A stretch of 64,000 nt of DNA from an uncultured Gammaproteobacteria bacterium (GCA_964582715.1 CAZOSM010000004.1:57906-121905), one strand, 5' to 3'; counted from the first letter of the stretch, positions 3,205 through 51,421 are shown. A program made the numbers and translations. Notes: generated from the letters alone by a model not told the origin.

Positions 3205-3750
3205 CTAGATAAAAGATTGTAGTTTATTAAAATCTTCCTGGATAAGTTTTTGATACTTAGGAAACCTGAGCCCAGCTGCGGGGTGAAGAGTAAGTAAATA
3301 GGTCCTTTCATCTTTTTTTATAATTTCACCATGGTGCTTGAGAATAGGGAGATCCTCTGCAAGAACAGCATACATTGCAGTTTTACCCAGTAATACAACT
3401 ACTTGAGGATTGATAATATCCATCTGTTTCATAAAGTGTATTCTTGCATGCTCAATTTCTTTTTTTCTGGGAGTACCATGTTTAGGAAGGTATTTAACTG
3501 GGCTTGTGATGTACACATCTTCTTCTTGTAATCCTTGTTCTCGAATAAATTTGCGTAGAAGCTGCCCCGAGCGCCCGATAAACGGTCTGCCGTTTTCTGC
3601 TTCTTGCCTTCCTGGTGCTTCACCTACAAACATAATGTTTGCATTCGGGTTTCCTTCACCAAACACCATCTTCCCGATAGAATCTTTTTTACATTCTTGA
3701 CATGCACTCATCTCCTTTTCAAGCTGTTCTAGTTGTTTTGACTTATCCAT
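3205..3750 (-). CDS. Uracil-DNA glycosylase, family 4
   Basis: GEGNPNANIMFVGEAPG and LHPAAGLR motifs, N-terminal Cys pair (CQEC) typical of Fe-S family-4 UDG. Confidence 0.85.
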   Translation of the reverse strand: MDKSKQLEQLEKEMSACQECKKDSIGKMVFGEGNPNANIMFVGEAPGRQEAENGRPFIGRSGQLLRKFIREQGLQEEDVYITSPVKYLPKHGTPRKKEIEHARIHFMKQMDIINPQVVVLLGKTAMYAVLAEDLPILKHHGEIIKKDERTYLLTLHPAAGLRFPKYQKLIQEDFNKLQSFI

Positions 3751-3777
3751 AGAGCTGGTTACATGATATCATATATC

Positions 3778-5070
3778 ATGCGAATTGGAATCATTGGAGC
3801 TGGTTTTACAGGTCTATCAGCGGCACTAGAACTACAGAAAGATGGTCATGAAGTGCACTTATTTGAAAAAGAAAAGGTCCCAGGAGGGCTCGCCGTAGGA
3901 TTTAGTGAAGAACAATGGGATTGGTCACTCGAGAAACATTACCACCATATCTTTACGACAGATTCTGCCATACGTCATTTAGCAAAAGAAGTAAAACATC
4001 CTTTTGAATTTAGTAGACCCAATACGTCCTCGCTTATTGACGCTGATATCATTCAGCTCGACTCACCAATTAAATTACTTCAGTTCCCCAAACTTTCTCT
4101 TATTGAGCGGCTACGAATGGCAGCAGTTCTTGGCTATTTACGATATCTGGCAGATTGGAAGCAACTCGAAAATTTCAAAGCTCACGACTGGCTTACCAAA
4201 GCAATGGGGAAGAAAGGCTATTCAATGCTCTGGGAACCTCTTCTGAAAGCAAAGTTTGGATCATATTACAAAGATATTTCACTTGCATGGTTTTGGGCTC
4301 GTATTAAGGCAAGATCTACTCAGTTGGGTTACCCAAAGCAGGGTTTCCAGGGATTTGCCGAGCGTCTTGTTGATATTATTCTTGATAATGCAGGTGTTAT
4401 TCATTACCAAACACAGGTTACAAAGCTCGATCAAGTAGATAAAAAAACAGTACTAACCTACCAGACAAAGGGTGTAAAACAACAGGAAATCTTTGACGTT
4501 GTGCTTGTAACTATTCCAAATCTTCAGTTTGCTGGTATAGCGCCAAGTCTCCCAGAAAACTATAAAAAGAAATTACGGGATTTTAAAGGTATTGGTGCGG
4601 TAAATATGGTGCTAGAACTTACCAAGCCGTTTTTGCCAAACAAGGTGTATTGGCTCAGTATCTGTGATACTCAGAATCCTTTTTTGGCGGTTGTTGAGCA
4701 CACCAATTTTATTGATAAAAAATACTACGATAATAAGCATATTGTGTATGTGGGGAACTATTTACCTCATGGTCATACGTATTTCTCTATGAAAAAAGAG
4801 GAGCTGCTTAAAGAATACGATCCTTACCTACAGAAATTACATGCAGGTTATGAAAAACACATTGTGAATAGCTATGTCTTTAAAGAACCATTCGCTCAAC
4901 CGGTTGTGACACCAGGCTTTTCAAAACAAATTCTCGATTTTGAAACTCCTTTATCCCATGTTTTTTTGGCTAATATGCAACAAGTGTACCCTTGGGATCG
5001 CGGAACAAACTTTGCAGTTGCAAAAGGAAAGGAAGTCGCGAGTGTGATTCGTGGTAAAATAAAGGCATGA
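3778..5070 (+). CDS. NAD(P)/FAD-dependent oxidoreductase (amine-oxidase / phytoene-desaturase-like fold)
   Basis: IGIIGAGFTGLSAA...LFEKE..PGGLA dinucleotide motif; TGaTATCAT box 5 nt before ATG 3778 (alternative ATG 3763); stop overlaps next start (ATGA at 5067..5070). Confidence 0.75.
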   Translation: MRIGIIGAGFTGLSAALELQKDGHEVHLFEKEKVPGGLAVGFSEEQWDWSLEKHYHHIFTTDSAIRHLAKEVKHPFEFSRPNTSSLIDADIIQLDSPIKLLQFPKLSLIERLRMAAVLGYLRYLADWKQLENFKAHDWLTKAMGKKGYSMLWEPLLKAKFGSYYKDISLAWFWARIKARSTQLGYPKQGFQGFAERLVDIILDNAGVIHYQTQVTKLDQVDKKTVLTYQTKGVKQQEIFDVVLVTIPNLQFAGIAPSLPENYKKKLRDFKGIGAVNMVLELTKPFLPNKVYWLSICDTQNPFLAVVEHTNFIDKKYYDNKHIVYVGNYLPHGHTYFSMKKEELLKEYDPYLQKLHAGYEKHIVNSYVFKEPFAQPVVTPGFSKQILDFETPLSHVFLANMQQVYPWDRGTNFAVAKGKEVASVIRGKIKA

Positions 5071-6638
5071 AATCTTCCTCACAGACCAGTTCAACAGGAG
5101 AATTGCTTTTATCAATTAGTCTTATTGTGCTGGCCTTTGGAGGTATCTTCGATGCATTTTATTTAACACTTAAACATTATTCAAAAGAGATTCCACCTTG
5201 TGCAACAGGTATTTTTGCAGATTGTGGAACTGTCTTAACAAGCCAGTATGCAACAATCTTCAACATTCCTCTATCTCTTTTGGGGATGGTTCATTATGCA
5301 TTACTTACAACTCTTATCTTGATATCGATTATGTCTGCTAAGCAGTTGTTTATTCGACTTGCTTTTCTTGCTTCTGCCATTGGGTTTGTATTCTCTTTAT
5401 ATCTGGTATTCCTTCAGGTAGTTGTACTCAAGGCTTTGTGCCAGTATTGTATGGTTTCAGCGCTTATTAGCTTTATGTTGTATGTTCTTATTCGCATCAG
5501 ATTCTCTGCAGAGTATCGTAATATGATGCCTAAAAAGGTAGAAATGTTGTACCAGATTTTTGGTAAGCCAGCTTTCTTTTTGTTTAACCCTGAATGGGTA
5601 CACGATAACGCAATGCGTTTTGGAGAATTATTTGGAAAAGTGCCTTTTATCAGATCACTATTCCGTTTCCTTTTCTCATATGAACATCCATCACTCAAGC
5701 AGAAAATAGGTGATATTACCTTTCAGAACCCTGTTGGTTTAGCCGCGGGGTACGATTACGAAGCTGCTTTTACTCAGGTATTGCCATCAATCGGTTTTGG
5801 TTTTGAGACGATCGGAACTATGACAAACAGCCCTAGCGAGGGGAATGAAAAACCACGTTTAGGCCGTCTGATTAAATCTAAATCATTGTTGGTAAATAAA
5901 GGATTTAGAAACCCAGGTGCTCAAAGAGTCGTTAAAAAATTACAAGGACACTCCTTTGAATTCCCTTTAGGAATTAGTGTTGGAGTAACCAATGACCCAA
6001 AAATTGCTACACTCAAAGAAGCTATTAATGATATTATCAGTGCTTTCCAAACCTTTGAAAAAGGAAGACTAAAAAATGCCTATTATGAACTCAACATAAG
6101 TTGTCCGAATTTAAAAACAGCAGTTTCTTTCTATGATCCCAAAGGATTACACCAGCTATTAACTGAGGTGGGAAAGCTAAAACTCAAGAAACCTCTATTC
6201 ATTAAAATGCCAATAGAGAAGTCCAATGAAGACGTAAAAAAGATGCTAGATATTATTGTGAAACATAAGGTTGTAAAAGGAGTTATATTTGGTAATCTGC
6301 AAAAAAATAGGAAGGATAAAACACTCCTTCCAGAAGAGGTGTCAAAAATGGGCAAAGGAAACTTTAGTGGTAAACCTACTTTTAAAAGGTCAAACGAGCT
6401 TATCAGATTGGCTTATAAAGGATATGGAAAGAAGCTTGTTATTATTGGCTGTGGTGGTATCTTTAGTGCCGATGATGCTTATATAAAAATAAAGTTAGGA
6501 GCTTCTCTCGTTCAGCTTATTACGGGTATGATCTTTGTTGGCCCTCAACTCATTACTCAGATTAATAGAGGATTAGTGGAGCGGTTAAAACGTGATGGTT
6601 ATAAAAAACTATCCGATGCAGTTGGAGTTGATGCGTAG
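5067..6638 (+). CDS. VKOR-domain / dihydroorotate-dehydrogenase-like fusion protein
   Basis: N-terminal 4 TM helices with C45-x7-C53 and C125QYC128 (VKOR redox pairs). C-terminal DHODH fold (FNPEWVHDNAMRFG, FQNPVGLAAGYD, GNEKPRLGRL, ELNISCPN, FSGKPT, GCGGI, ASLVQLITGMIFVGPQLI). Confidence 0.8.
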   Translation: MKSSSQTSSTGELLLSISLIVLAFGGIFDAFYLTLKHYSKEIPPCATGIFADCGTVLTSQYATIFNIPLSLLGMVHYALLTTLILISIMSAKQLFIRLAFLASAIGFVFSLYLVFLQVVVLKALCQYCMVSALISFMLYVLIRIRFSAEYRNMMPKKVEMLYQIFGKPAFFLFNPEWVHDNAMRFGELFGKVPFIRSLFRFLFSYEHPSLKQKIGDITFQNPVGLAAGYDYEAAFTQVLPSIGFGFETIGTMTNSPSEGNEKPRLGRLIKSKSLLVNKGFRNPGAQRVVKKLQGHSFEFPLGISVGVTNDPKIATLKEAINDIISAFQTFEKGRLKNAYYELNISCPNLKTAVSFYDPKGLHQLLTEVGKLKLKKPLFIKMPIEKSNEDVKKMLDIIVKHKVVKGVIFGNLQKNRKDKTLLPEEVSKMGKGNFSGKPTFKRSNELIRLAYKGYGKKLVIIGCGGIFSADDAYIKIKLGASLVQLITGMIFVGPQLITQINRGLVERLKRDGYKKLSDAVGVDA

Positions 6639-6639
6639 T

Positions 6640-7671
6640 ATGAAAAAGATACTTATCATTCTTGCTTTATTCCTTTATATCTTTCCAGGTTCTCTTCATG
6701 CTCAAAATAACACTGGTAGGTACGAAGCAGAGGTGACCAATATCCAAAATGGTGATGTTACTGTTATGGTCCTTGAAGAAGATAAAAAAGGTCAAGAGTA
6801 CAAAGTTGAGTTGTTTGATGAAAGACAGCAACTTGAGGAGGGTGATAAAGTAATAGTGTCCATCATAACAGGCGTGGAAAGAGAGCCGTCGGTTATTATA
6901 GAAGATCATATTAGGCGATTTCCGCTCATTGTTCTTTTTGCCATATTTTTACTTATTGTCATTATTGTTGGTCGAATCAAAGGAATCCTTTCATTTATTG
7001 GAATGGTATTTTCTTTTCTTATTATTGGCCAGTTTATAGTACCACAGATTATATTAGGCAATGATCCGCTTCTTATTTCATTATTAGGAGCATTATTTAT
7101 TATTCCATTAACATTCTATATTGGTCATGGAGTCCGTTGGCAAACAACTATAGCAGTGATAAGTACATTTATTGCGCTCTTTATTACAGGTATCCTTGCT
7201 TATATTTTTGTTCCTTTTGCAAAGCTCACTGGGTTTGCTGCAGAGGAAGCAACTTTTATTCAAGCCATACCAGGAACTTCTATTAATATTCAAAGCCTCC
7301 TTCTTGCTGGAATTGTGATTGGTGCTATGGGAGTTCTTGATGACATCACTATTTCTCAAACCTCTATTGTCGATAAACTTGTTAAAGCTAATCCAAAGTA
7401 TTCATTTAAAGAAGTATTTGCAGAAGCCATGGATGTGGGTCGAGATCATATCTCTTCATTAGTCAACACGCTTATTTTGGTTTATGCTGGAGCCTCGCTC
7501 CCTTTATTCGTCTTATTTCATAATTCTCAACTGGGAAGTTATACAGATATTATAAATATGGAGATTGTAGCAACAGAAATTGTGAGGACACTCGTGAGCA
7601 GTATTGGAATTATCTCAGCTGTCCCTATTACAACAGTCCTTGCAAGTTGGTATATAAAGAAAAAGAGTTAA
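6640..7671 (+). CDS. YibE/F-family membrane protein
   Basis: Signal-like N-terminus, about 90-aa soluble domain, then multi-TM body with AMGVLDDITISQ motif; ATG at 6640 is 1 nt after the upstream stop. Confidence 0.7.
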   Translation: MKKILIILALFLYIFPGSLHAQNNTGRYEAEVTNIQNGDVTVMVLEEDKKGQEYKVELFDERQQLEEGDKVIVSIITGVEREPSVIIEDHIRRFPLIVLFAIFLLIVIIVGRIKGILSFIGMVFSFLIIGQFIVPQIILGNDPLLISLLGALFIIPLTFYIGHGVRWQTTIAVISTFIALFITGILAYIFVPFAKLTGFAAEEATFIQAIPGTSINIQSLLLAGIVIGAMGVLDDITISQTSIVDKLVKANPKYSFKEVFAEAMDVGRDHISSLVNTLILVYAGASLPLFVLFHNSQLGSYTDIINMEIVATEIVRTLVSSIGIISAVPITTVLASWYIKKKS

Positions 7672-8243
7672 TTACATGCCTTCCAAAGCCCTCGTTCTTC
7701 TTTACGAGCTGTTTTTTCTGCATCTCGAATGAGCGTGTCATATTTTACATCGGGAGGATAGGTATAAAGTCGTGCATAACCTTGCTCAACAAGGTACTCA
7801 TTAACAAAAATTGCTTCATCGGTAGCTTCTGGATTAATAATATATACATAACGAAGATATCTGTTATACCTATCTGTGTTGGTGACATCTTTTTCCATAA
7901 AAATCTGTTTACCTTCAACCAGCTCAGTATTCTTTTGAGAAGCTTCGCGACCAAAACACTGCACAGGCTTATTGGGGTGTTTTGTTTCTGGCGTGTCGAT
8001 GCCAATATATCGCACAGTTTCACCTGTTTCGAGCTTAATGGTGTCACCATCAACAACCTCTGAAACAACACCTTGTTCCATCTGTCTTATATCCACCTCT
8101 GCAAGAGCATTGGTCTCTTCGGCAAGCGTTTTAAAAGACTTAAATTTATTGATTTCTATTGTTATCTGTTCAAACGAAAGGATGAAGAGGATTATCAGAA
8201 AAGGTAGTAAGTAGAGTTGAGGTAACTTTACTCTAGGTATCAT
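7668..8243 (-). CDS. Membrane-anchored/secreted thermonuclease (SNase family)
   Basis: N-terminal TM anchor; VVDGDTIKL, RYIGIDTPE, FGREA, YNRYLRYVY, RGLWKAC motifs of the staphylococcal nuclease fold. Confidence 0.85.
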   Translation of the reverse strand: MIPRVKLPQLYLLPFLIILFILSFEQITIEINKFKSFKTLAEETNALAEVDIRQMEQGVVSEVVDGDTIKLETGETVRYIGIDTPETKHPNKPVQCFGREASQKNTELVEGKQIFMEKDVTNTDRYNRYLRYVYIINPEATDEAIFVNEYLVEQGYARLYTYPPDVKYDTLIRDAEKTARKEERGLWKACN

Positions 8244-8250
8244 ATAGTAC

Positions 8251-9579
8251 CTATTTTAGGTTCTTTATGATCTGTTTTGTGAGGATAATTTCTTTAAATA
8301 AATCTTTTGCTACAGATAATGCAAGTGTTGCTGCCTCTTTATTGGAAAGCTCGGTTCCATAATTTTTTGTTTTTGCACGCTCCAGAATAGTATCGGAAAC
8401 AGTTTTTCTTTTTGCAATCATGTCTTCTAGAGGTTCAATGAGAGGAAGAGATTTTGCAGGTATACATTGTTTACCCAGTTCGAGTAAACCTTTACAGTAT
8501 TCATAAATCATATTGTCCTGGAGACCTTTGTATGCGGCTTTATACTGTAATTTTTCTCTAACATGTTCTTCTGGTGGAATATAAATGGTGTTTCCAATTT
8601 TTTTGAATGGATATTTAATAGCGTCTTTGGAAACTGCAACCTGGACAAACTTTTCTTGCACATCTCGGGCAATATATTCAATAAGCGTTGCAAGAGCAAT
8701 GATAATCCGTGGATTGTTAATATCAAGTCCTCTATGCTCGAGCGTTCCATGGGAATTGAGCTTTACGGGGTTCCATGCAGTATCTAAAATAGAACCTCTT
8801 TTTAAAAGAGCCTTAATATTAATATCAAACTGGCCAATGATAGATTCCCAATCTTCAAATTTATTTTTAATAACAGCCATTAAATCGGTACTGCTATCTC
8901 TATACTTCTGTAAAGCACCAAACTGAGGATACTTAGCATATAAACCTTGGGGGTAATTGAGTAAATCGCCACCTCGATACACAATCATGCGGGCATCTTT
9001 TCCAAGCTGCTTACCCTGGTAATAAGGAGAACTTTGAGCAAATGTAGTGAGTGCTGGATCCATCGCAATAAACAAGTTATACATGTTGAGCATGCTATCC
9101 TGGTTTTTAGAAGAAATAAGTGTTTTTATAATCTTTTGTTCATAATCAAATACGCCCCATGGGAGTGAGAAATGAAAGTGAAGGCCTATACATCTTTTTG
9201 CAATAGCAAATTTTTGTTTTCCAAAAATTTGTTCCTTTACTTTATATCCATGCTCATCTTGAGTTTCGGGATTATGTTTCCCTGGGTAGGTGCCATATGA
9301 ATAGAGAACAATATCTTCTTTATCTGCGCAAAGGAGGACACTCTCAAAATCTTCAAGAAATGATTCCATGAGTTGTGGGATGTTGGTACTCGGTTTACTA
9401 ATAACTTCAACCATATTTTTACCACATTCACGCTTGATATCGATATGAGGATACATGTTTTTTACTCGTTCTATCAACCTGTCTGCAGCATCAATCATAT
9501 AGCCAGATCGATCAAGGGTAAAAAGTTCTATCTCGATACCGAATTTTAGTTTTTTTAATACTGAATTTTTTTTCGCCAT
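8251..9579 (-). CDS. Glutamate-cysteine ligase family 2 (GCS2/YbdK-like carboxylate-amine ligase)
   Basis: GIEIELF, MVEVISKP, IGLHFHFSLP, GTLEHRGLD motifs spaced as in GCS2 enzymes; 7-nt gap to the nuclease gene. Confidence 0.6.
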   Translation of the reverse strand: MAKKNSVLKKLKFGIEIELFTLDRSGYMIDAADRLIERVKNMYPHIDIKRECGKNMVEVISKPSTNIPQLMESFLEDFESVLLCADKEDIVLYSYGTYPGKHNPETQDEHGYKVKEQIFGKQKFAIAKRCIGLHFHFSLPWGVFDYEQKIIKTLISSKNQDSMLNMYNLFIAMDPALTTFAQSSPYYQGKQLGKDARMIVYRGGDLLNYPQGLYAKYPQFGALQKYRDSSTDLMAVIKNKFEDWESIIGQFDINIKALLKRGSILDTAWNPVKLNSHGTLEHRGLDINNPRIIIALATLIEYIARDVQEKFVQVAVSKDAIKYPFKKIGNTIYIPPEEHVREKLQYKAAYKGLQDNMIYEYCKGLLELGKQCIPAKSLPLIEPLEDMIAKRKTVSDTILERAKTKNYGTELSNKEAATLALSVAKDLFKEIILTKQIIKNLK

Positions 9580-9695
9580 AGAAACAACAAACTATTTTTG
9601 TTTTGGGATAGTATATTATACACGAAATTGTAATATTTAGAGCATATTAACACAATGCATCAGATGCAAAGAACTCCCCACTCTTGAAAGAAATG

Positions 9696-9704
9696 TGATA
9701 AAAT
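9696..9704 (+). promoter_or_regulatory. Extended -10 box TGATAAAAT for tRNA-Pro
   Basis: TGn-TAAAAT ends 12 nt before the mature tRNA 5-prime end; the same element precedes the other two tRNA genes. Confidence 0.5.
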
Positions 9705-9716
9705 TAGTCTCACATT

Positions 9717-9790
9717 CGGGGCGTAGTTCAGATGGCTAGAACGTACGCTTTGGGAGCGTAAGGTCGCGAGTTCAAGTCTCGCCGCCCCGA
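9717..9790 (+). tRNA. tRNA-Pro (anticodon UGG)
   Basis: Manual cloverleaf: acceptor CGGGGCG/CGCCCCG, anticodon arm TACGC-TTTGGGA-GCGTA, T arm GCGAG-TTCAAGT-CTCGC, discriminator A; CCA not encoded. Confidence 0.9.
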
Positions 9791-9834
9791 CATTTGGGCT
9801 TTCGCAGTAATGTATATAGAAGTTGTACTACAAC

Positions 9835-11055
9835 TTAATAACTGATTAATTGTGGATCTACATTTGATAAAGTACTTCGTCGTTGTTGTTTTTCAATTTG
9901 AGCTATGGCAGAGTCGATCCCTTTTATAAATGATCTATTTTGGGATTTTGCAATTATTTTAGCTCCAGCAATCGGACTAAGAATCAGTGATGTATTAAAC
10001 AAAGTACTGCCTCCTGTTGGTGTTTTTGGTTCCTCAAATGTTATTTCTATTTTATCAATTGCAATTTTTTTACTCATCTTTTGACCGAACCTAGCGAGAT
10101 GTTCTTTTCCTTTCTTCACATCATATTCAGAAACATTACTGGTTGGGTTTGTCATAATAAAATTAATTCTTTCCTCAGGTCGTAATGATGCAAATCCAGC
10201 TAGAATATCGTGCATGGATAAAAACCCCACTGGTTTTTTATAATTATCAGTGAGCACAACACTATTATGATCAGATGTCATAAGCTGCTTTATTATCTCT
10301 GTCTGCTCCGTATCATTTGATAATGAATATACCCGATGAGTAGCATAGTTTTTTATTGGGTCATCAGATCTATATTTTTTTTCAATATCAAATGCCCGAT
10401 CTGTCTTTTGTATACCATTTTTTCCAAATCGTTGTCTATCCGTAGGCTTCATATATGCATTCAGCAAATCTTTTCGTGAAACTATACCCGAAAGAATTCC
10501 ATGATTACCAACTAATATAACTCGTGATACACTTTTTTTCTTCATTATTTGGAATATGTCTCCCACAGTAGAATTATTACTAGCAGTGACTGGTATATGT
10601 GGTTTTATAGTAGAGCTTATATACATTAATAAATCTTGATCTTTCAGTAAATTTTGAAATATATATTTACTACTTATCACTCCTATAACTTGTTTATCTT
10701 CATTAAATACTGGAAGGACATACATGCGATTTTCAAGCATATATGAGGCTACATTATACAGTTGAGTTTTTTTTGTAATAAGTGGGGGATTTATTGCAAT
10801 TGATGAAACTTTTGTTGTATAGGGATATCTATGTTTGTAAAGTGCTGTGTATGATGAAATAAGTCCGATAAATTCACCTTTTTCTGTAAAAACAAATAAA
10901 GGTGAATGACTTGAAACAATACGCGGTAATACGGATCCCAAAGTTTCTTCTGCATCGATTTTTAGATTATTATCAAGTGGTGAAATATATGGAACAATTT
11001 GAAATTGTTTTTTTAAATCTCTATCAGAGCCTTTTATATGTATTATGTTATTCAT
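9835..11055 (-). CDS. Four-CBS-motif protein with C-terminal HPF/RaiA (ribosomal S30AE)-like domain
   Basis: Four CBS motifs (res ~40-290). Res ~297-393 match the beta-alpha-beta-beta-beta-alpha pattern of hibernation factors (INFIMTN..., IDKIEITFEE, LFNTSLILS, KIIAKSQN, FIKGIDSAIAQIEKQQRR). Confidence 0.65.
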   Translation of the reverse strand: MNNIIHIKGSDRDLKKQFQIVPYISPLDNNLKIDAEETLGSVLPRIVSSHSPLFVFTEKGEFIGLISSYTALYKHRYPYTTKVSSIAINPPLITKKTQLYNVASYMLENRMYVLPVFNEDKQVIGVISSKYIFQNLLKDQDLLMYISSTIKPHIPVTASNNSTVGDIFQIMKKKSVSRVILVGNHGILSGIVSRKDLLNAYMKPTDRQRFGKNGIQKTDRAFDIEKKYRSDDPIKNYATHRVYSLSNDTEQTEIIKQLMTSDHNSVVLTDNYKKPVGFLSMHDILAGFASLRPEERINFIMTNPTSNVSEYDVKKGKEHLARFGQKMSKKIAIDKIEITFEEPKTPTGGSTLFNTSLILSPIAGAKIIAKSQNRSFIKGIDSAIAQIEKQQRRSTLSNVDPQLISY

Positions 11056-13820: not shown

Positions 13821-14417
13821 TTAGGTATTATCAAGTGAGTTCCACAAGATACGACAAGCATAGGTCCGGTAAGGTTTCCAGTTTTCGCTTATCTCAAGCA
13901 GTTTCTCAACTGTCGGATCCTTAATCTGGTAGAGTTTTTCAATAGCTCGTTTAAGTCCAAGGTCTCCTGTTGAGAATAAGTCTTCTCGACCCAATGAGAA
14001 CATAAGAAACATCTCAGCTGTCCAACGGCCTATGCCTTTTACTTTAGTCAGCTCATCAATCACTTCCTGTTCTGTCATATCTTTTAATGATTCAAGGTGT
14101 ACTTGTTTGGTAATCACCTTATCTGCTAAATCTAAGATATATTTAGCTTTCGCATTAGAGATACCAAGTGCACGAAGTTCTTCCACAGAAAGTGTATGCA
14201 CACGCTCTGGTTCAATGACATCATCTAGTAGTCGTTTAAACCGGTTATAGATTACATCACTTACTTTTACAGAAAGCTGTTGTGAAATGATTAATTCACA
14301 AAGTGAAGCAAAATAGTTGTCAGACTCAGTTTTCACTATTGTTTTCCCATGCTGCATGGCGGCTTTATACAGTATTAGGTCTTTCTTCTTGAAGTGGTTG
14401 AGAATTTGTTTGTTCAT
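13821..14417 (-). CDS. DNA-3-methyladenine glycosylase II-like (AlkA, HhH-GPD superfamily)
   Basis: HhH-GPD core: QQLSVKV, LTKVKGIGRWTAEMFLMF, catalytic-Asp context TGDLGLKRA. Confidence 0.8.
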   Translation of the reverse strand: MNKQILNHFKKKDLILYKAAMQHGKTIVKTESDNYFASLCELIISQQLSVKVSDVIYNRFKRLLDDVIEPERVHTLSVEELRALGISNAKAKYILDLADKVITKQVHLESLKDMTEQEVIDELTKVKGIGRWTAEMFLMFSLGREDLFSTGDLGLKRAIEKLYQIKDPTVEKLLEISENWKPYRTYACRILWNSLDNT

Positions 14418-15084
14418 TTGCGGTTTGAGTACTATTTTTTAAACGAGAAATCCATAATGCTATTCTAAGAACTATCACACTTACTCCTGCTACAAAGACA
14501 AAAATACTGAAAGGTGGGAATAATGAATCTCCTCCACCCAAAAGCCATTCTAACCAATCAGTATAGAGTAGCATTCCAAAATGTAAAATTGAGAGGGCAT
14601 AGGCAATATATCCCAGCCGTAGCAACTGTCTCCAGAGTTTACCTCCTAACTTCTGGACCATAGATTTTCGAGAAATATAAACCATTCCCGCATACATAAT
14701 AATTGCGATCACAGCGCTGAGAAAAGGTATAAGGCGATCTTCCTGAAGGTAATAGATCACATAAGGTTTAGCGCGAGAAGACATAAATAATGCAAAATAG
14801 GTATGAAATAATGCATATATAAACCCAATAACTCCCAGATGTTTACGGTAAATGATAAAGTGATCAGCGAAGTTCCAGAAGTAACATAGGCCGCTTAGTG
14901 CAAACGAGAGGCCAATAAGTAGAATGCTCACATCAGCTGCTACTCTATTTGCTATGAATAAACTAAAAGTACCTCTTTGTACAAAATAGTAAAGAGCAAC
15001 AACTATATAGACAAAAAGACTGTAAATAATCATATTTCGCCAAAGAGATAGCGTTGTATTAGATTGGCTGTTGTCAGGATTCAT
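14365..15084 (-). CDS. Ferric-reductase-like transmembrane domain protein (MsrQ/YedZ-like)
   Basis: Six TM helices with conserved His contexts RKHLGVIGFIYALFH and WRQLLRLGYIAYALSILH; 3-prime end overlaps the AlkA-like ORF by 53 nt. Confidence 0.55.
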   Translation of the reverse strand: MNPDNSQSNTTLSLWRNMIIYSLFVYIVVALYYFVQRGTFSLFIANRVAADVSILLIGLSFALSGLCYFWNFADHFIIYRKHLGVIGFIYALFHTYFALFMSSRAKPYVIYYLQEDRLIPFLSAVIAIIMYAGMVYISRKSMVQKLGGKLWRQLLRLGYIAYALSILHFGMLLYTDWLEWLLGGGDSLFPPFSIFVFVAGVSVIVLRIALWISRLKNSTQTANEQTNSQPLQEERPNTV

Positions 15085-15140
15085 ATATTAGCCCAAGTAT
15101 ATCGAATTTCTGCCATTCTATCTAGTATTATTAAAGTGAC

Positions 15141-15575
15141 ATGAAGAAACAATATCTGATTGGTATAGTTTTGATGATTCTGTTAATTGTACTGGGTGGA
15201 TATGTATATATGCAGAAACAAAGGGTACACACTCAGCCAGAAGATGCACTGTGGGAGAATTATGAAGTAAGAGAGGTGGAAATAGAAGGCAAAGTATATA
15301 AACTGATTGTAGCTGATACTCCAGCAAGATGGCAAAAGGGACTTATGTTTGTCAGAAAACCAGTAACAGGGTTTGATGGCATGATTTTTATTTTTCCTTC
15401 TTACCAGTATCAGCGTTTTTGGAATATGAATACTTTTGAGAATCTCACTTTATATTGGATGAAAGGTGAAGAGGTTGTAGGGAAAAGCCAGCTTCCTTCA
15501 ATTGAAGAGAGTAAAGATATTGTTCGTGTTTCTTCTCCGGAGCCAGTAAATATAGTTGTAGAAATAATTAATTAA
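15141..15575 (+). CDS. DUF192-family protein with N-terminal membrane anchor
   Basis: VADTPARWQKGLMF...GMIFIF...FWMNT-like core typical of DUF192 (COG1430). Confidence 0.7.
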   Translation: MKKQYLIGIVLMILLIVLGGYVYMQKQRVHTQPEDALWENYEVREVEIEGKVYKLIVADTPARWQKGLMFVRKPVTGFDGMIFIFPSYQYQRFWNMNTFENLTLYWMKGEEVVGKSQLPSIEESKDIVRVSSPEPVNIVVEIIN

Positions 15576-15579
15576 AAAA

Positions 15580-15601
15580 CCGAGGTATGACCCTCGGTTT
15601 T
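15580..15601. terminator. Bidirectional intrinsic terminator
   Basis: CCGAGG (15580..15585) - 6-nt loop - CCTCGG (15592..15597), flanked by an A-run upstream and TTTT downstream; lies between convergent genes. Confidence 0.7.
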
Positions 15602-15625
15602 ATGACTCATGTACGGTACTTTAAA

Positions 15626-15901
15626 TCAAAGTGCGATTGATCCATTGTTTTTAAGCTTTTTAGAAGCTTTATCTTGGATGTTATCTTTTGTGTGTTCCGC
15701 TCTACTGCTGAGTAGGTTAAATGAATCCTGTGTTTTTTTCTTAACATCATCTAACCTCTCCATGACTTTCTTTCTATTATCTTTGTTAGATAAGTAAAGA
15801 GTTGCTGCCGATCCAAGTGCAATACCTGCTGCAGCTCCCACAACTCCTGCCACAAAAGGATCTTTCGCTCTTTGTTCTGCTAAATGGTTTTGATCTTGCA
15901 T
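15626..15901 (-). CDS. YtxH-domain general-stress protein
   Basis: Gly/Ala-rich N-terminal helix (VAGVVGAAAGIALGSA) then charged helical tail. Confidence 0.7.
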   Translation of the reverse strand: MQDQNHLAEQRAKDPFVAGVVGAAAGIALGSAATLYLSNKDNRKKVMERLDDVKKKTQDSFNLLSSRAEHTKDNIQDKASKKLKNNGSIAL

Positions 15902-16014
15902 AGATAAATAATAAATTAATAACGTATTCTTATCTTATATTCATAATTACAAAATAGAATAAAGAATATGATAAAGTATCGTAAGAACAGTATTACTAAT
16001 TAATTATTTTATTT

Positions 16015-16488
16015 ATGCCTTTACCAATAGGAATGCAGGCACCAGAATTTAACCTGCCAGATCACAATGGAAAAAATCATAACATTACTCAATACAGAGG
16101 AAGCTGGGTGGTTGTATACTTCTATCCAAAAGATGATACACCTGGTTGTACAAAAGAAGCTTGTTCATTCCGTGATCATTTTGAAGTTCTGAAAGCACAA
16201 GGGATAGTAGTATTGGGAATTTCAAAAGACACACAAGCATCACATAAAAAGTTTACTGAAAAATATAATTTAAATTTTACTCTGTTGAGCGATACGGAAG
16301 GGGAGGTTATTAAAAAGTATGAAGCATGGGGAGAGAAGAAAATGATGGGGAAAACGTATGAAGGAATACTACGTATTACATATATTCTCGATCCACAAGG
16401 CATTATTCGTAAAGTATACGAACAGGTCAAGCCAGATGATCATGCCCAAGAGATACTTACAGATATCAATGCTTTACGACAAGAATAA
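16015..16488 (+). CDS. bcp: Thiol peroxidase Bcp (peroxiredoxin)
   Basis: VVVYFYPKDDTPGCTKEAC peroxidatic-Cys motif, AhpC/TSA fold length. Confidence 0.9.
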   Translation: MPLPIGMQAPEFNLPDHNGKNHNITQYRGSWVVVYFYPKDDTPGCTKEACSFRDHFEVLKAQGIVVLGISKDTQASHKKFTEKYNLNFTLLSDTEGEVIKKYEAWGEKKMMGKTYEGILRITYILDPQGIIRKVYEQVKPDDHAQEILTDINALRQE

Positions 16489-24623: not shown

Positions 24624-25161
24624 TCCCCAACTGACTGCGTTAATTAAAGATAAGCAACTAGTGCTAGATACTAATGTATTAATTTCATGCTTTACAAATG
24701 AGGAGTATTTTAAAACATTCTTAAATGTATTCGAAAATAATCCTTTTCTAATTGATTCAATTGTAAAACTCGAATTTATGAGAAATGATTATTTGTCTGA
24801 TGACATGAAAAAGAAGAATATTTTTTTAAACTTTGATAGATTTTATGTAATTACTGAACATCAAGATATTTTCAAAAAAACAATTGAAAATAGCTATGAT
24901 ATATCTCGCATTTACTCTCATAAAGGTAATCCTCGAATTCCATTAGGAGATATCCTTATTATTTCACGATTAAAACAATTTGCTGATAGACAATTATTCC
25001 TTACTCTTGATAAAAGTGATTTTTCAACAATTCTATTTGATCGAATAGGTGTTGTTTCTATAGAAAGAAATTCTAGGAATAATCATAATCTTTTAGAACA
25101 TATAGTTATCCTTCAGTTTAATAGTAAAAAATATACACAATGCATTAACCAACTTCCTTAG
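24607..25161 (+). CDS. PIN-domain protein (putative toxin nuclease)
   Basis: Acidic PIN positions in order: LVLDTNVLI, KLEFMRN, GDILIISRL, LTLDKSDF. Confidence 0.6.
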   Translation: MSAYYNPQLTALIKDKQLVLDTNVLISCFTNEEYFKTFLNVFENNPFLIDSIVKLEFMRNDYLSDDMKKKNIFLNFDRFYVITEHQDIFKKTIENSYDISRIYSHKGNPRIPLGDILIISRLKQFADRQLFLTLDKSDFSTILFDRIGVVSIERNSRNNHNLLEHIVILQFNSKKYTQCINQLP

Positions 25162-25562
25162 TTTCTTTTCTTAAAATTTAACGAAGCAGAATTAATACAG
25201 TATCTTTGGCCTCCTTTATCTGTTGGTCCATCGGGGAAGACATGCCCTAAATGAGAGCCACAATTTCCACAAGTCACCTCAATACGTCTCATTCCAAAGC
25301 TGTTATCTGCATTATATTTGAGGGCGTCTTTAGAAACTGGATCCCAAAATGCTGGCCAACCACAGCCTGAGTCGTATTTTGTATCCGAAGTAAAGAGATC
25401 AACTCCACAGACTTTGCAGTAGTACATTCCTTTTTTAAAGTGATGGTCATACTTATTAGTAAAAGGAGCTTCAGTACCTTTTTCCTGGGTAATACGATAG
25501 GTTTCGGGGTCAAGTTCTTGCTTAAGTTGTTCTTTTGTTTTGGAGAATTGAGGAGATGTCAT
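25158..25562 (-). CDS. msrB: Peptide-methionine (R)-S-oxide reductase
   Basis: CKVCG...CGNCGSHLGHVF zinc pairs, GCGWPAF, catalytic RYCINS; ATG 25562 preferred over TTG 25610. Confidence 0.9.
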   Translation of the reverse strand: MTSPQFSKTKEQLKQELDPETYRITQEKGTEAPFTNKYDHHFKKGMYYCKVCGVDLFTSDTKYDSGCGWPAFWDPVSKDALKYNADNSFGMRRIEVTCGNCGSHLGHVFPDGPTDKGGQRYCINSASLNFKKRN

Positions 25563-25584
25563 ACTTTTATTATACTCCTGTGTG

Positions 25585-25830
25585 TCAAGTGGATTCTGGA
25601 ACCGGGTCAAAACCGCCTTTGCTCCATGGATTACATCGCAGTATTCTTTTTAATCCAAGATAACTTCCTTTTAAAGCTCCATACTTGTCGACTGCTTCAT
25701 AAGTATATCTCGAGCAAGTTGGTGTAAATCTGCAACCGGCATTGGTATTAAACAGAAATTTAAACACGCCTTCATATATAAATGAAGTGTTCTGATAGAT
25801 TGTGATGAGGTTAAGAATTATTTTTTTCAT
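25585..25830 (-). CDS. yidD: Membrane protein insertion efficiency factor YidD
   Basis: [15 protein letters not shown]...[11 protein letters not shown] signature. Confidence 0.85.
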
Positions 25831-39661: not shown

Positions 39662-40120
39662 TTATTCTGTAACAATAAGTGAACCAACCATACCTTGCTC
39701 TCTATGATTCATTACCGAACAGTAGTACTCAAATGTTCCTACCTCATCGGCAACAAATTCAACGGTGGTAGTTTCACCAGTATCGACAACTTCTGAATGA
39801 ACATTCAATTCATCTATATTAAAGTCATGTGTGCCATTCACACTGGAGAAAGTTATAGTTACTCTATCACCCTTTTTAACATTCAGCTGTTGGACATCAT
39901 AAGAAAAGCTTGTCCCGTTAATGGTAAATTCTTTAGCACCATCTTCTTCCACTGTTACATCACCTTCTATAAAGCCAGTTAAGTTTCTCTGTGGAGCCGT
40001 TTGCTCTTGTGTATTTTCAGTAGGAGACATGGTATCTCTATTCATATTTCTCATAAGTAAGAATATAGCAAGGGCAACAAGAATAATCCCAATGACTGCA
40101 ATAAGTATTTTATTATTCAT
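39662..40120 (-). CDS. Membrane-anchored cupredoxin (type-1 blue copper) domain protein
   Basis: N-terminal TM. Ligand pattern H (GTHDF) ... YYCSVMNHREQGM (Cys-x4-His-x4-Met) as in plastocyanin/azurin-family proteins. Confidence 0.7.
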   Translation of the reverse strand: MNNKILIAVIGIILVALAIFLLMRNMNRDTMSPTENTQEQTAPQRNLTGFIEGDVTVEEDGAKEFTINGTSFSYDVQQLNVKKGDRVTITFSSVNGTHDFNIDELNVHSEVVDTGETTTVEFVADEVGTFEYYCSVMNHREQGMVGSLIVTE

Positions 40121-44177: not shown

Positions 44178-46913
44178 ATGTTTTCATTTTTACGTCCATT
44201 ATCTGTTTATTTCATAGCTATTTTTGTACTATTCAGCTTCTTATTTATAGCACCTATTGTTAAAGCAGAAACACTTCTTGAAGGGTCAAATAGTAATTTA
44301 TCTGGAGATGATAATTATGTGGGATCGATAGGTATTGGCTTTAATTTTGATTTTTATGGTAATTCTTACTCGCAGTCATCCATCAATATCAATGGTATGT
44401 TAAATTTTGGATCAGGATCGTCTGCATATAGTAACACTGGTATTCCAAATGCAAGCTCTCCAAACAATTTTATAGCTCCATTCTGGGATGACATAATTAC
44501 GCAGGATTTTAGTAAAGAGACTATTTACTATACTACAACTGGTTCTGCTCCTAATCGTAAATTTATAGTGCAATGGACGAATATGTACTTTTATAACAAT
44601 CCAACTCTCCAGATGGGTACATTTCAAGTAATTTTATATGAAGGGTCTAATAACATCCAAGTGCGCTATCTTGATTTGTATGGTAATGCACAGGCCTTTG
44701 GTAACAGTGCTTCAATTGGAGTAGAAAATAGCAATGGTAGTTCTGGAGTACAATATTCATTAAATACTGCGTCCTTAACAAGTGGACAATGTTTGTTATT
44801 CTCACCGAGTGATGGTACTTATTCTATTGATGATGATGCAACCTGTGACGAATATAGATTATTTGATCCGAATGCTCCTTCTGCACCGACATTGACTGCT
44901 CCGGATGATGGTGTTAATGAAGAAGCTTTAATTCCAACTTTTATGTGGGATGAAGCCAATAATACTGATAGCTACACAATTTTAATTGCTACAGACGCTA
45001 ATTTTGCAAATATTACCTATAATCAAACTGGAATAACTTCAACTAGTTATACACCTCCCAACCCCCTATTAAGTGATACGTTATTTTATTGGCGAGTACA
45101 ATCGGTGAATGAAACAACAACGGCGTTATCTGAAGTCAGGACATTTACAACAAGACATGCACCTCGACTTTCCACATTTGGCCCATCGGCTATGGTAAAC
45201 GGGAGTTATACAACCAATGCTAGTCCGGGTGTGACCTTTAACATTACAGATAGTGTTGATGGACATTCAGTTCAATACAGGATTCAAATAGATAATAATA
45301 GCAATTTTGGAAGCCCCGAGGTCGATTATACTTCCGGACTTGCTAGCACTGGTTCTACATCTTTTACAGTTGGACAAGATGCTGGTTCTGGAAGTTATAC
45401 AGTGGGCAGTGCAGGTCAACAATTGTCTAATGCCAATTATTATTGGAGAGTTATGGCAATAGATTCAATTGGAGAAGAGTCTCCATACACAACAGCAAAT
45501 AGTGGAAGCATCGCTTTTCGTGTGCTAGCTGGATCTCCCGAAATATCTGATATGAATGCTATAGCTAATAATACTACAGCCACAATCACGTGGACAACAG
45601 CCCAGGAATCATCTTCTAAAGTTGAATATGGACGAGTTACTACCTATGGGTTTACAACAACTGAAACCAATACTTCACCTCGAGTGACCAGTCATTCAGT
45701 GAATCTTACCGATTTAACACCATGTAGTCGCTACTTTTATCGTGTGAGATCTAAAAATGCTGCAAGTAGTGAAAAGGTGAGCACACAAGGAACTTTCTCT
45801 ACAACAGGCTGTGTGACTACCATTGTTGAAGGTTCGGAGGAAACTATTGTTCCGGCCAGTGGTGGATCTGTTACATATACAAATAATAACGCAACAATTG
45901 GTATTACAGCGCCAAGTAATTTTGTAAACGAGTCTAGTACGACTATTCAAATTAACAGGTTAGAAACGAATTCTGTACCAGTAGCACCACCATCTGTGAG
46001 CTTAGTAAAGGATAATCTATATAGTTTTACAGTTGTAACAGATGGCAGTGAAACTATAACGGAGTTTGATGAGCCAGTTATTGTTGTTTTTACATATGGA
46101 ACAGATATAGAAGCACAATATAAAGAATCAACTTTAGACTTATATAAATATCTTGAAGATAATGATGAGTGGGAGTCTAAATCTTGTATTGTGGATACAA
46201 ATGCAAATACAGTGACATGTACTCTTTCATCTTTTTCGACATATGGAATAATGGGTGAAGAAAATACACAACAATCCTCTGGAAATCGTCCTTCAAGCTC
46301 TCAACCTGGAATTTCGACAAAAACATGTAGTAATGATCGTCCAGAAGGGAGTATTGATTTATTCCAAATCGATATGATAGATACAAAAGCTACCTTGCAT
46401 TTTACACCTATTAATAACAATATCAGTGAATACTTTATAAGTTATTCTTTAAATAAAGATGAATATATGTATGGAGTAGTCTTGCCACATGGTCCTTCAT
46501 CTGGTGCAATAAATTACACCATTAATGAGCTGACACCCAATACAACATATTACTTTCAAGTCCGCGCTGGAAATGGATGTATGCCAGGTGAGTGGAGCAA
46601 TCAGATGGAAGTTAAAACGACGGTAAAAAATGGAGAACAGAAAGTGTATTATAAAAATTTTGTGGCTAAAATATTATCAGTGTTACCCAACACACAGAGA
46701 GTATTAGGAAAAACTACCACAAAACCTGTAAAGCAACAAAAAAATACTAATACCAAAACTTGTTCATACACAATTGCTCCGAATGATACATTATGGAATA
46801 TTGCAGAAGCAAAGTTGAACAATGGAGCACGCTATAAAGAAATCATGGATCTAAATAATATGGATTCAACAATACTTACTCCTGGAGAAACAATTAAAAT
46901 AGCTTGCTCATAA
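44178..46913 (+). CDS. 911-aa secreted surface protein: NIDO-like N-domain, FN3-like repeats, C-terminal FN3-linker-LysM cassette
   Basis: Signal peptide. FNFDFYG...NGMLNF...IAPFWDD...TFQVILYE (NIDO-like). At least three FN3-like units (YYWRV, YFYRVRS). C-terminal LysM (CSYTIAPNDTLWNIAEAKL...TPGETIKIAC). Confidence 0.8.
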   Translation: MFSFLRPLSVYFIAIFVLFSFLFIAPIVKAETLLEGSNSNLSGDDNYVGSIGIGFNFDFYGNSYSQSSININGMLNFGSGSSAYSNTGIPNASSPNNFIAPFWDDIITQDFSKETIYYTTTGSAPNRKFIVQWTNMYFYNNPTLQMGTFQVILYEGSNNIQVRYLDLYGNAQAFGNSASIGVENSNGSSGVQYSLNTASLTSGQCLLFSPSDGTYSIDDDATCDEYRLFDPNAPSAPTLTAPDDGVNEEALIPTFMWDEANNTDSYTILIATDANFANITYNQTGITSTSYTPPNPLLSDTLFYWRVQSVNETTTALSEVRTFTTRHAPRLSTFGPSAMVNGSYTTNASPGVTFNITDSVDGHSVQYRIQIDNNSNFGSPEVDYTSGLASTGSTSFTVGQDAGSGSYTVGSAGQQLSNANYYWRVMAIDSIGEESPYTTANSGSIAFRVLAGSPEISDMNAIANNTTATITWTTAQESSSKVEYGRVTTYGFTTTETNTSPRVTSHSVNLTDLTPCSRYFYRVRSKNAASSEKVSTQGTFSTTGCVTTIVEGSEETIVPASGGSVTYTNNNATIGITAPSNFVNESSTTIQINRLETNSVPVAPPSVSLVKDNLYSFTVVTDGSETITEFDEPVIVVFTYGTDIEAQYKESTLDLYKYLEDNDEWESKSCIVDTNANTVTCTLSSFSTYGIMGEENTQQSSGNRPSSSQPGISTKTCSNDRPEGSIDLFQIDMIDTKATLHFTPINNNISEYFISYSLNKDEYMYGVVLPHGPSSGAINYTINELTPNTTYYFQVRAGNGCMPGEWSNQMEVKTTVKNGEQKVYYKNFVAKILSVLPNTQRVLGKTTTKPVKQQKNTNTKTCSYTIAPNDTLWNIAEAKLNNGARYKEIMDLNNMDSTILTPGETIKIACS

Positions 46914-47641: not shown

Positions 47642-48328
47642 TTAATATTGAGGATATCCAGGAAACCAATCCTGTTTAATATTGTTTTCAGAAATACCCA
47701 TTTCTTTTAGAGTATTCCCCAAACTCTCCACCATTGGTTCAGGTCCTGAAACATAAAAAAGAGGTTTCTGAATATCTGGAATCAGTTCTTTGATCTTGTT
47801 CTCATCAATATGTTCTGGTGAAAATATATAGTGAATTTTAAAGTTTGGGTTTTCTTTTACAAATGCTTCAAGTTCTTCTTTATACACAATGTTTTGATCA
47901 CGGTTAGCGTATAAAAGGGTGATATTAAGTAGTTTTCCTTCATGATTGAGCTGTTTAAGAATTGATCTAAATGGAGTAATGCCGATTCCTCCCGCTATAA
48001 ACACATATTCCTTGGAATAGTCTTCAATAACAAAATCTCCTTCCACCACAGAAATTTCAATAGATTTTCCAATTTTGAGATTCTTCAGTTTATTTTTAAA
48101 AGAACTACTTCTTTCGTTATTAAATCTGGTTGTCAGCATGATATTACCTTCTATAGGGGCAGCTGCATTAGTAAACCATCTATCAGAACCTCGATCATCT
48201 GTTGGTTCATGATGCAAGACATAATGGAGAAACTGTCCTGGTTTCCAAGTAATCTTTTCCGATGGTTCAAAGATAAATGATTCTACATCGGTTGTTTCAG
48301 ATTTTTTTTCAATGAGTTTTAATTTCAT
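47642..48328 (-). CDS. FNR-like FAD/NAD(P)-binding oxidoreductase
   Basis: RWFT (RxYS-type FAD motif), GGIGITPF NAD(P) motif, beta-barrel plus Rossmann length. Confidence 0.75.
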   Translation of the reverse strand: MKLKLIEKKSETTDVESFIFEPSEKITWKPGQFLHYVLHHEPTDDRGSDRWFTNAAAPIEGNIMLTTRFNNERSSSFKNKLKNLKIGKSIEISVVEGDFVIEDYSKEYVFIAGGIGITPFRSILKQLNHEGKLLNITLLYANRDQNIVYKEELEAFVKENPNFKIHYIFSPEHIDENKIKELIPDIQKPLFYVSGPEPMVESLGNTLKEMGISENNIKQDWFPGYPQY

Positions 48329-51343: not shown

Positions 51344-51421
51344 ATAAGAAAATACTTGAAGTGAATTAGGGAACAATAGACTATTGTAGATAGAAAATGC
51401 TTGATCTGGTACACTAAACGT

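Follow-up and report, generated by a model that had tools for sequence, protein, structure and literature searches.

A conserved fusion of VKOR with a Cys-type class-2 dihydroorotate dehydrogenase in Candidate Phyla Radiation bacteria

Vitamin K epoxide reductase (VKOR) and class-2 dihydroorotate dehydrogenase (DHODH) both normally reduce a membrane quinone, and in E. coli an anaerobic disulfide relay runs from DsbB through menaquinone to fumarate reductase, ending in fumarate. Here we analyzed a window (the whole stretch of DNA under study, 64,000 nucleotides or 64 kb) from an assembly titled uncultured Gammaproteobacteria bacterium (GCA_964582715.1 CAZOSM010000004.1:57906-121905), in which a single gene encodes a VKOR domain followed by a DHODH. 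The VKOR part shares with the described bacterial enzymes (Synechococcus 3KP9/4NV2; the VKOR of M. tuberculosis and Actinomyces, which work with DsbA/MdbA) the four-helix core, the loop Cys pair, the CxxC motif of the fourth transmembrane (TM) helix, the conserved Ser, and the Pfam family, while the DHODH part shares with class-2 enzymes (E. coli PyrD 1F76, M. tuberculosis 8OFW, human) the fold, the quinone-tunnel domain with its His and Arg, and the pyrimidine-binding Asn residues. In Synechococcus VKOR, a periplasmic thioredoxin-like domain follows a fifth TM helix, whereas the fusion partner here is a flavoenzyme that comes after TM4 and, given the even number of TM helices, is predicted to be cytoplasmic; unlike the known bacterial VKOR systems, the fusion also has no fused or consistently adjacent thioredoxin-fold partner. 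Class-2 DHODHs are held at the membrane by amphipathic helices or a single TM helix, whereas the anchor here is a polytopic redox enzyme, and the fusion further departs from them in having Cys for the catalytic Ser, Tyr for the Lys of the GFDK motif, and a shorter N-x-G-F loop.

The 523-amino acid (aa) product contains VKOR (PF07884, E 4e-26) and DHO_dh (PF01180, E 2e-50) in a single chain (Table 1). The original prediction, made from the sequence alone, had proposed this covalent fusion and suggested profile searches with these two Pfam models; both matched within the same open reading frame (ORF), and the ORF, Pfam, and NCBIfam evidence agree. We verified the motifs C45-x7-C53, LTSQY, C125-Q-Y-C128, FNPEWVH, GNEKPRLGRL, and ELNISCPN. 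An AlphaFold2 model built on an alignment of fused relatives, of which we used the secondary structure and the confidence values, reached a pLDDT of 94.5 and a pTM of 0.89, the latter implying that the inter-domain arrangement is fixed in the model. Its VKOR helices span aa 10–39 (TM1), 69–90 (TM2), 93–121 (TM3), and 126–145 (TM4), and the end of TM4 passes immediately into a helix (aa 147–170), followed by the other helices of the class-2 N-terminal extension (aa 175–191 and 193–203). Given that this helix directly follows TM4 and that residue 162 aligns with residue 2 of E. coli PyrD, there is practically no flexible linker between VKOR and DHODH. The protein carries two intact catalytic modules on opposite membrane faces, connected via TM4, a helix with the CxxC motif at its outer end and with its inner end running on into the quinone-tunnel helices of the DHODH.

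This architecture is widespread. The best 120 matches in a 90%-clustered protein collection all had both Pfam domains at 51–83% identity and about 510–525 aa; the named sources among them were Roizmanbacteria, Woesebacteria, Levybacteria, and 'Patescibacteria', and their database name was simply 'quinone-dependent dihydroorotate dehydrogenase'. Scanning metagenome contigs with a VKOR-plus-linker alignment gave 221 matching stretches, and a scan with the full alignment was dominated by class-1 enzymes that also carry ELNISCPN, so that just five fused loci came out of it. Both domains lay in a single ORF in 89 of 93 retrieved loci, the exceptions being one contig end and three apparent frameshifts. 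After grouping at 90% identity, which defined the non-redundant lineages used for neighbor counts, the fusion was present in at least 72 lineages, all of them Microgenomates-like, from the Candidate Phyla Radiation (CPR), and it formed about a dozen full-length clusters in a library of 1.84 billion representatives clustered at 50%. The original prediction had raised the concern that the junction might be an assembly artefact, and one could picture two neighboring genes merged through a sequencing or gene-calling error. We give this virtually no chance: the same single ORF recurs in those 89 loci of independent assemblies and in all of the best 120 protein matches, the junction is a continuous and confidently modeled helix, and nothing in favor of a merger was found among the loci, the protein matches, and the model. 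CPR-type copies also occur in metagenome-assembled genome records titled 'uncultured Gammaproteobacteria', 'Pseudomonadales', and 'Weeksellaceae' (L007, L009, L011, L017, P0045), which are probably mislabels or mis-binned contigs.

It had also been anticipated that the architecture might prove common and already characterized; it is common, but we found no characterization in the literature. No publication on a VKOR-DHODH protein was found, including in a dedicated VKOR family survey, and the part of the literature naming both terms that was covered consisted of ferroptosis reviews. As far as we could find, a conserved architecture is held in databases under a generic name, apparently undescribed and unstudied.

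The catalytic residues of the VKOR half are retained throughout the family. All 120 full-length relatives retained Cys45, Cys53, Cys125, and Cys128, and 119 of 120 retained Ser59, which follows the loop Cys pair; residues near the VKOR active site were conserved too. Both redox pairs had been read from the sequence at the outset, and this conservation together with the alignment to Synechococcus VKOR bears that reading out. Complete retention of the cysteines is far beyond chance and, judged by this pattern, the VKOR domain is not a dead anchor. The distribution of Lys and Arg in 121 relatives was uneven across the membrane: on the cytoplasmic side, the averages were 4.75 per 27 aa (after TM4) and 1.5 per 6 aa (TM2–3 loop), against 1.39 per 30 aa (Cys loop) and 0.43 per 6 aa (TM3–4 loop) on the outer side. 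Given that this distribution fits the positive-inside rule for an N-in/C-in protein, the cysteines are expected to face outward and the flavoenzyme inward, and the VKOR active site is predicted to be extracytoplasmic. The argument for a cytoplasmic flavoenzyme from an even TM count, made in the original prediction, also holds for a relative with two additional TM segments after VKOR, in which the count is still even.

By profile and structure comparison, the C-terminal half is a complete class-2-type DHODH. Its last 360 residues passed the class-2 equivalogs TIGR01036 (232.4 vs. 200) and NF003652 (277.8 vs. 267) of NCBIfam, with the remaining eight PRK05286 sub-models scoring under their cut-offs, and class-1 models remained far under theirs (NF002702, 61.7 vs. 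301; TIGR01037, 78.6 vs. 270; class-1B NF005574, 74 vs. 269). Foldseek superposed the barrel on full-length M. tuberculosis class-2 DHODH (8ofw) with a TM-score of 0.94 and an rmsd of 1.7 Å, consistent with the full DHODH with class-2 hallmarks that had been recognized from the sequence. In the quinone-tunnel domain, Y162, F171, and H179 (5601..5603) are invariant, the last within a D-P-E-x-V-H motif and in 121 of 121 relatives. We take H179 to correspond to E. coli His19, and R267, the Arg of F/G-R-L, to Arg102 of the E. coli and Arg136 of the human enzyme. Asn260, Asn343, Asn348, Asn410, and Lys380 were likewise invariant in 121 relatives, three of the pyrimidine-binding Asn residues (N343, N348, N410) and the second Lys of the barrel (K380) among them.

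Two positions in the active site depart from the canonical class-2 pattern. Cys346, correctly identified beforehand as the catalytic base, fell on the catalytic Ser within the N-[VL]-S-S-P-N motif of 8ofw, 6b8s, and 4xq6 (including the M. tuberculosis and H. pylori enzymes) and was Cys in 120 of 121 fused relatives. The second departure, which the original prediction had missed, is a Lys-to-Tyr change: where class-2 enzymes show GLAAGFD-K, the fused family has GLAAG[FY]D-Y, with Tyr231 in all 121 fused relatives as well as the nearest unfused relatives, while more distant Cys-type relatives retain the Lys (FDK). We assume that the residue replaced is the Lys (E. coli Lys66, L. lactis Lys43) through which every DHODH class contacts FMN (flavin mononucleotide) and the carboxylate group of orotate. 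In addition, the N-x-G-F loop of the fusion is one residue shorter than the class-2 N-R-M-G-F.

These traits extend well beyond the fusion. Cys occupied the catalytic-base position in 128 of the 140 nearest 50%-identity representatives for which the motif aligned, and Ser appeared among the most distant only; most of these Cys-type proteins were unfused, of ordinary length (350–400 aa), and with a normal class-2 amphipathic N-terminus. Close unfused relatives, at most 54% identical, had the same active site as the fusion, and fused and unfused members interleaved in a crude neighbor-joining tree without support values. Given that 128 of the 140 carry the Cys, the mixed class-1/class-2 character, which had been presented as special to the fusion, is the signature of a large, uncharacterized, and mostly unfused class-2-like DHODH branch, and a hybrid trait specific to the fusion was ruled out. 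One unfused Cys-type relative came from Peribacteraceae (L169), where a gene of the UbiB/ABC1 family, which has been associated with the handling of quinones, is located 4 kb upstream of the DHODH on a 1.38-Mb contig (L169:4701-6104).

Other members of the branch carry other anchors before the DHODH, namely a PAP2 domain, a single TM helix, or an unidentified five-TM domain, and one has a cytidylyltransferase-like domain C-terminal to it; the architectures observed include PAP2 phosphatase-DHODH, DHODH-cytidylyltransferase-like, 5-TM-DHODH, and VKOR plus two TM segments-DHODH (P0146, P0145, P0222, P0130). Given that related DHODHs bear non-redox anchors (PAP2, single TM), anchoring alone accounts for part of the architecture, which had been thought to escape explanation by textbook roles. 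Taken to its extreme, this would make VKOR a mere membrane anchor co-opted by PyrD, its thiol chemistry lost; the fact that unfused relatives function without VKOR would agree with it. However, the retention of all four Cys in every full-length relative at 51–83% identity, along with Ser59 and the residues near the active site, would be unexpected for a passive anchor, and we consider such a loss highly doubtful.

Outside this branch, a Cys base on a DHODH is known from two settings. Class-1A enzymes (L. lactis PyrDa and the trypanosomatid enzymes, fumarate-dependent) share the Cys base in ELN[IL]SCPN but are soluble and without the N-terminal quinone domain, and the class-1 profile scores of the fusion are far under cut-off. 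Class-1B enzymes (PyrD-PyrK) differ in turn, given that no PyrK was found near the fusion in the 72 lineages and that NF005574 is under its cut-off. The fungal enzymes SjUra9, DbUra9, and ArUra9 are alike in their class-2 scaffold, Cys base, and respiration-free life, and some keep quinone-site residues; they differ in being eukaryotic, of independent origin, and without VKOR fusion or a reported Lys-to-Tyr change, and ArUra9 lacks the N-terminal domain (PMC8520639). These rare Cys-type class-II enzymes serve anaerobic, respiration-independent pyrimidine synthesis; one became better when fumarase was mutated, and a different one worked with free flavins instead of fumarate (PMC8520639). By analogy, the Cys base, as a subfamily trait in non-respiring lineages, would mark operation independent of respiration.

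CPR bacteria are described as fermentative, without respiratory chains, and often missing nucleotide synthesis (PMC7143001), which is essentially complete in closed Peribacteria genomes (PMC4736985). No quinone biosynthesis genes were reported in CPR genomes sampled from soil (PMC8407418), while CPR genomes carry VKOR and are enriched in MdbA-like thiol-disulfide oxidoreductases (PMC6744442). How VKOR is re-oxidized in anaerobes without quinone synthesis was raised for Clostridia in 2025, with scavenged quinones as a suggestion (PMC12453122). Against this background, we tentatively favor a reading of the fusion as a bifunctional, quinone-coupled membrane protein of non-respiring, Microgenomates-type CPR bacteria, the modules of which work on one scavenged quinone while VKOR also anchors the DHODH. 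The VKOR module would oxidize an exported MdbA/DsbA-like thiol oxidoreductase and reduce a membrane quinone, and the DHODH module would oxidize dihydroorotate, with Cys346 as base, and pass the electrons via FMN to what we infer from the sequence to be the same quinone. Both would run in their canonical directions, from thiols to quinone outside and from dihydroorotate through FMN to quinone inside. The fusion would provide a permanent anchor for a peripheral DHODH, like the single-TM and PAP2 anchors of its sister enzymes, and would tie a pair of quinone-dependent housekeeping reactions to a single quinone that is scarce and probably scavenged. The invariance of H179, R267, N343, N348, N410, and K380 in 121 relatives supports this bifunctional reading. 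A private quinone shuttled between the two sites, as the original prediction had offered, would also agree with the data.

Several observations weigh against it. Two joined quinone reducers leave the quinol oxidizer missing, and no respiratory or quinol-oxidizing gene was seen in the 64-kb window. Neither the window nor 905 kb of non-redundant flanks from the 72 lineages contained pyrB, pyrC, pyrE, pyrF, or carAB, and a role in pyrimidine synthesis is consequently unproven for the fusion genomes; pyrK was also absent from the flanks. The probes readily found the pyr genes in 60 control loci, with PyrK in 53 of 60 control class-1 loci, and about five hits would have been expected by chance for six pyr/car genes (pyrC, pyrE, pyrF, pyrK, carA, carB) randomly placed in 1-Mb genomes, compared to none seen. 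Given that shared synteny makes flank samples non-independent, the absence is suggestive at most. The two active-site departures, Ser to Cys and Lys to Tyr, mean that the substrate or acceptor of the DHODH module may differ from that of class 2. A DsbA/MdbA-like partner was adjacent in none of the 72 lineages except one (L087), and the sharing of a quinone is drawn from sequence continuity rather than geometry.

The absence of pyr genes near the 72 lineages would also fit a different route, in which the DHODH-like half stands outside the pyrimidine pathway and is instead the dedicated cytoplasmic outlet of VKOR. Electrons would pass from thiols through the VKOR cysteines and a bound quinone to FMN and then to fumarate or another cytoplasmic acceptor, with Cys346 serving as an acid as in class 1A, giving a disulfide-forming machine free of respiration. 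Approximate potentials are −120 mV for DsbA-type thiols/disulfides, −250 mV for orotate/dihydroorotate, and −74 mV for menaquinone. The original prediction had offered orotate or fumarate as the sink: orotate is disfavored because the transfer from thiols would run uphill, and of the two, fumarate alone is thermodynamically reasonable. This route would account for the fusion of a quinone reducer with a flavoenzyme in non-respiring organisms and is compatible with the preserved quinone tunnel. A Cys base is typical of enzymes reducing C=C bonds at this site, class 1A with fumarate being the example, and FUM1 mutations bettered a Cys-type class-II enzyme under anaerobiosis (PMC8520639). The transfer from yeast Erv1 to fumarate reductase Osm1 (PMC5638582) is a conceptual precedent for a disulfide relay ending in fumarate, albeit between separate proteins of unrelated families and with the link here only hypothesized. 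An aspartase/fumarase-like gene lies directly upstream of one fusion (L005) and another near an unfused DHODH (L016). However, a fumarate-making neighbor was found in only 1 of the 72 fused lineages, and ArUra9 extracts did not use fumarate (PMC8520639). The step from quinol to FMN would be steeply uphill, given that FMN bound to DHODH is quoted at −242 to −330 mV (PMC8520639), well below the menaquinone value above, and losing a Lys near the flavin should not make the FMN potential higher. The same active site is also present in many unfused and PAP2- or single-TM-anchored relatives. We therefore consider a thiol-to-fumarate route unlikely, albeit the most serious competitor of the bifunctional reading.

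By the same potentials, if the two modules shared a closed quinone without any other sink, the sole downhill net direction would be the reverse, from dihydroorotate through FMN and quinone to the VKOR cysteines and an extracytoplasmic disulfide. VKOR would then be the electron outlet of pyrimidine synthesis or part of a DsbD-like reductive pathway, in keeping with the conservation of the residues of both sites. Such a flow is improbable in our view, given that VKOR or DsbB working physiologically in reverse is without known precedent, that the step from quinol to disulfide is uphill for menaquinone, and that anoxic habitats are poor in oxidized disulfides. Moreover, one fusion genome (L087) encodes a DsbD_2-family protein, which we take to belong to the family of the reductive-pathway protein CcdA.

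Table 1. Features of the fusion gene and its neighbors, with positions in the window and occurrence among the 72 fused lineages.
Feature	Position (nt)	Strand	Evidence	Occurrence
VKOR-DHODH fusion gene, 523 aa	5067..6638	+	open ORF; Pfam and NCBIfam matches; AlphaFold2 model	
VKOR domain, aa 19–141	5121..5489	+	PF07884, 92.1 bits vs. cut-off 27.5; aligns to Synechococcus VKOR 4nv2/3kp9	
Extracytoplasmic-loop Cys pair (Cys45, 5199..5201; Cys53, 5223..5225)	5199..5225	+	aligns with loop cysteines of Synechococcus VKOR	
CxxC active site C125-Q-Y-C128, outer end of TM4	5439..5450	+	aligns with CMYC of Synechococcus VKOR	
Helix after TM4 (aa 147–170) and class-2 N-terminal quinone-tunnel domain (aa ~160–205)	5505..5681	+	secondary structure; PyrD alignment	
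DHODH (beta/alpha)8 FMN barrel, aa 210–507	5694..6587	+	PF01180; Foldseek to 8ofw	
Tyr231, in place of the GLAAGFDK Lys	5757..5759	+	alignment to 8ofw	
Arg267 of GNEKPRLGRL, equivalent of the class-2 quinone-site Arg	5865..5867	+	kept in 121/121 relatives; mapped by alignment	
Cys346, catalytic base/acid position of ELNISCPN	6102..6104	+	aligns to catalytic Ser of class-2 structures	
FAD-dependent amine-oxidase-like oxidoreductase (PRK07233 family), upstream	3763..5070	+	NF005560, 406 bits vs. cut-off 252	
YibE/F-family membrane protein, downstream	6640..7671	+	PF07907, E 2e-68	
Nudix hydrolase (Ap4A-hydrolase-like), downstream, same strand				28/72, commonest neighbor
Unannotated ~190-aa hydrophobic protein, downstream				23/72
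Second Nudix family, upstream				16/72
PNPOx-like protein				15/72
SNase				12/72
Class I/II aminotransferase				12/72
PEP carboxylase				8/72
Aspartase-like protein				1/72
DsbA/DsbB				1/72

The immediate neighbors of the fusion in the window are poorly conserved as partners. The upstream FAD oxidoreductase overlaps the fusion by ATGA (5067..5070), as had been noted; the overlap is real, but the conserved coupling that it might suggest is not, given that it was seen in this window only and that the gene was nearby in 9 of the 72 lineages, among them L086 and L006, where an orthologue lies at most 6 kb away. The gene was thus ruled out as a conserved operon partner. The YibE/F start codon at 6640 lies 1 nt past the fusion stop (TAG, 6636..6638), with GGAG at 6624..6627, which confirms the junction described earlier; YibE/F was nearby in only 6 of the 72 lineages, directly downstream in L003, L086, and L087 among these. 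Local order is conserved in L086, which keeps VIT1, response regulator, SDR, UDG, FAD oxidoreductase, fusion, YibE/F, and SNase, and further along Ferric_reduct, DUF192, AhpC, and FBPase, with the FAD oxidoreductase and the fusion four genes apart. The content of the window as a whole was CPR-typical, with enzymes for glycolysis, stress, and repair alongside numerous two-component systems, and it contained no pyr, quinone-biosynthesis, DsbA-like, or respiratory genes. Across the 72 lineages, there was no consistent DsbA/MdbA, fumarase, or quinone-biosynthesis neighbor. The nearest solved relative of the downstream Nudix protein is the Aquifex Ap4A hydrolase 3i7u; the recurrent downstream neighbors lie within 4 kb of the fusion (L089-L168 and earlier loci; e.g., L132:12336-12830 and L148:2423-3106).

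Two apparent pyrimidine genes in the flanks were rejected. The sole PyrB-like hit, near the fused L010, was ArgF in an ArgH/ArgE context, and a PyrF ('OMPdecase') near L085 was hexulose-6-phosphate-synthase-like. The latter belongs to a 225-aa PF00215 protein widespread in Microgenomates (L085:370-1047; P0271-P0390), which matched hexulose-6-phosphate synthase models only among NCBIfam entries and is named 'orotidine 5'-phosphate decarboxylase' in some NCBI records; it looks misannotated and could inflate the apparent completeness of the pyrimidine pathway in CPR bacteria.

Individual loci had further redox-related genes. On a 746-kb CPR contig (L087), a carotenoid-type cluster divergent from the fusion (3496-9948) comprised two CrtI-like amine oxidases, of a different family than the FAD oxidoreductase of the window, as well as SQS_PSY, a polyprenyl synthase, a UbiA prenyltransferase (PRK12875, above cut-off), and Caroten_synth, a set resembling C50 carotenoid (bacterioruberin-type) clusters. 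Some 9 kb downstream (L087:19737-21530), the contig encodes a thioredoxin-like DsbA together with a BdbC/DsbB-type oxidoreductase and DsbD_2, indicating that this genome has a second quinone-dependent disulfide system. In L005 (GCA_026415975.1), the aspartase/fumarase-like gene, a pyruvate formate-lyase, and its activase are encoded directly upstream of the fusion, on its own strand (5734-9996), and a Crp/Fnr regulator is downstream; the aspartase-like gene of L016 lies about 5 kb from its unfused DHODH. Within the window, a GCS2-family gene (YbdK-like, glutamate-cysteine ligase family 2) is encoded two genes downstream of the fusion (8251-9579, minus strand) and occurred in 1 of the 72 lineages; it could bear on low-molecular-weight thiol metabolism. 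A conserved trio of a Ferric_reduct-type heme-b membrane protein, DUF192, and a Bcp/AhpC peroxiredoxin (window 14365-16488; L086:18578-20675), together with MsrB (25158-25610), a cupredoxin-like gene (39662-40120), and an FNR-like NAD_binding_1 gene (47642-48328), represents possible membrane and redox components in a host reported to be without respiration. Two large, probably secreted proteins ending in LysM (44178-46913 and 49664-51376), one with fn3 and purple-acid-phosphatase-N repeats and the other with NHL beta-propeller repeats, may be surface or attachment proteins.

VKOR and DsbB need oxidized quinone, and bacteria that neither respire nor make quinone, CPR bacteria among them, are a case still lacking an explanation. 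Class-2 DHODH shares this quinone dependence, and the conserved fusion is a natural experiment on quinone-linked redox chemistry in such cells, making experimentally approachable the open question of how quinone-dependent disulfide formation and pyrimidine synthesis proceed without respiration or quinone synthesis. Our results also define a large branch of Cys-type class-2 DHODHs, in part with the Lys-to-Tyr change, which databases label as "quinone-dependent DHODH" without evidence. Finally, if it were true, electron transfer from VKOR through the flavoenzyme to a cytoplasmic acceptor would answer how non-respiring bacteria lacking quinones of their own re-oxidize VKOR.

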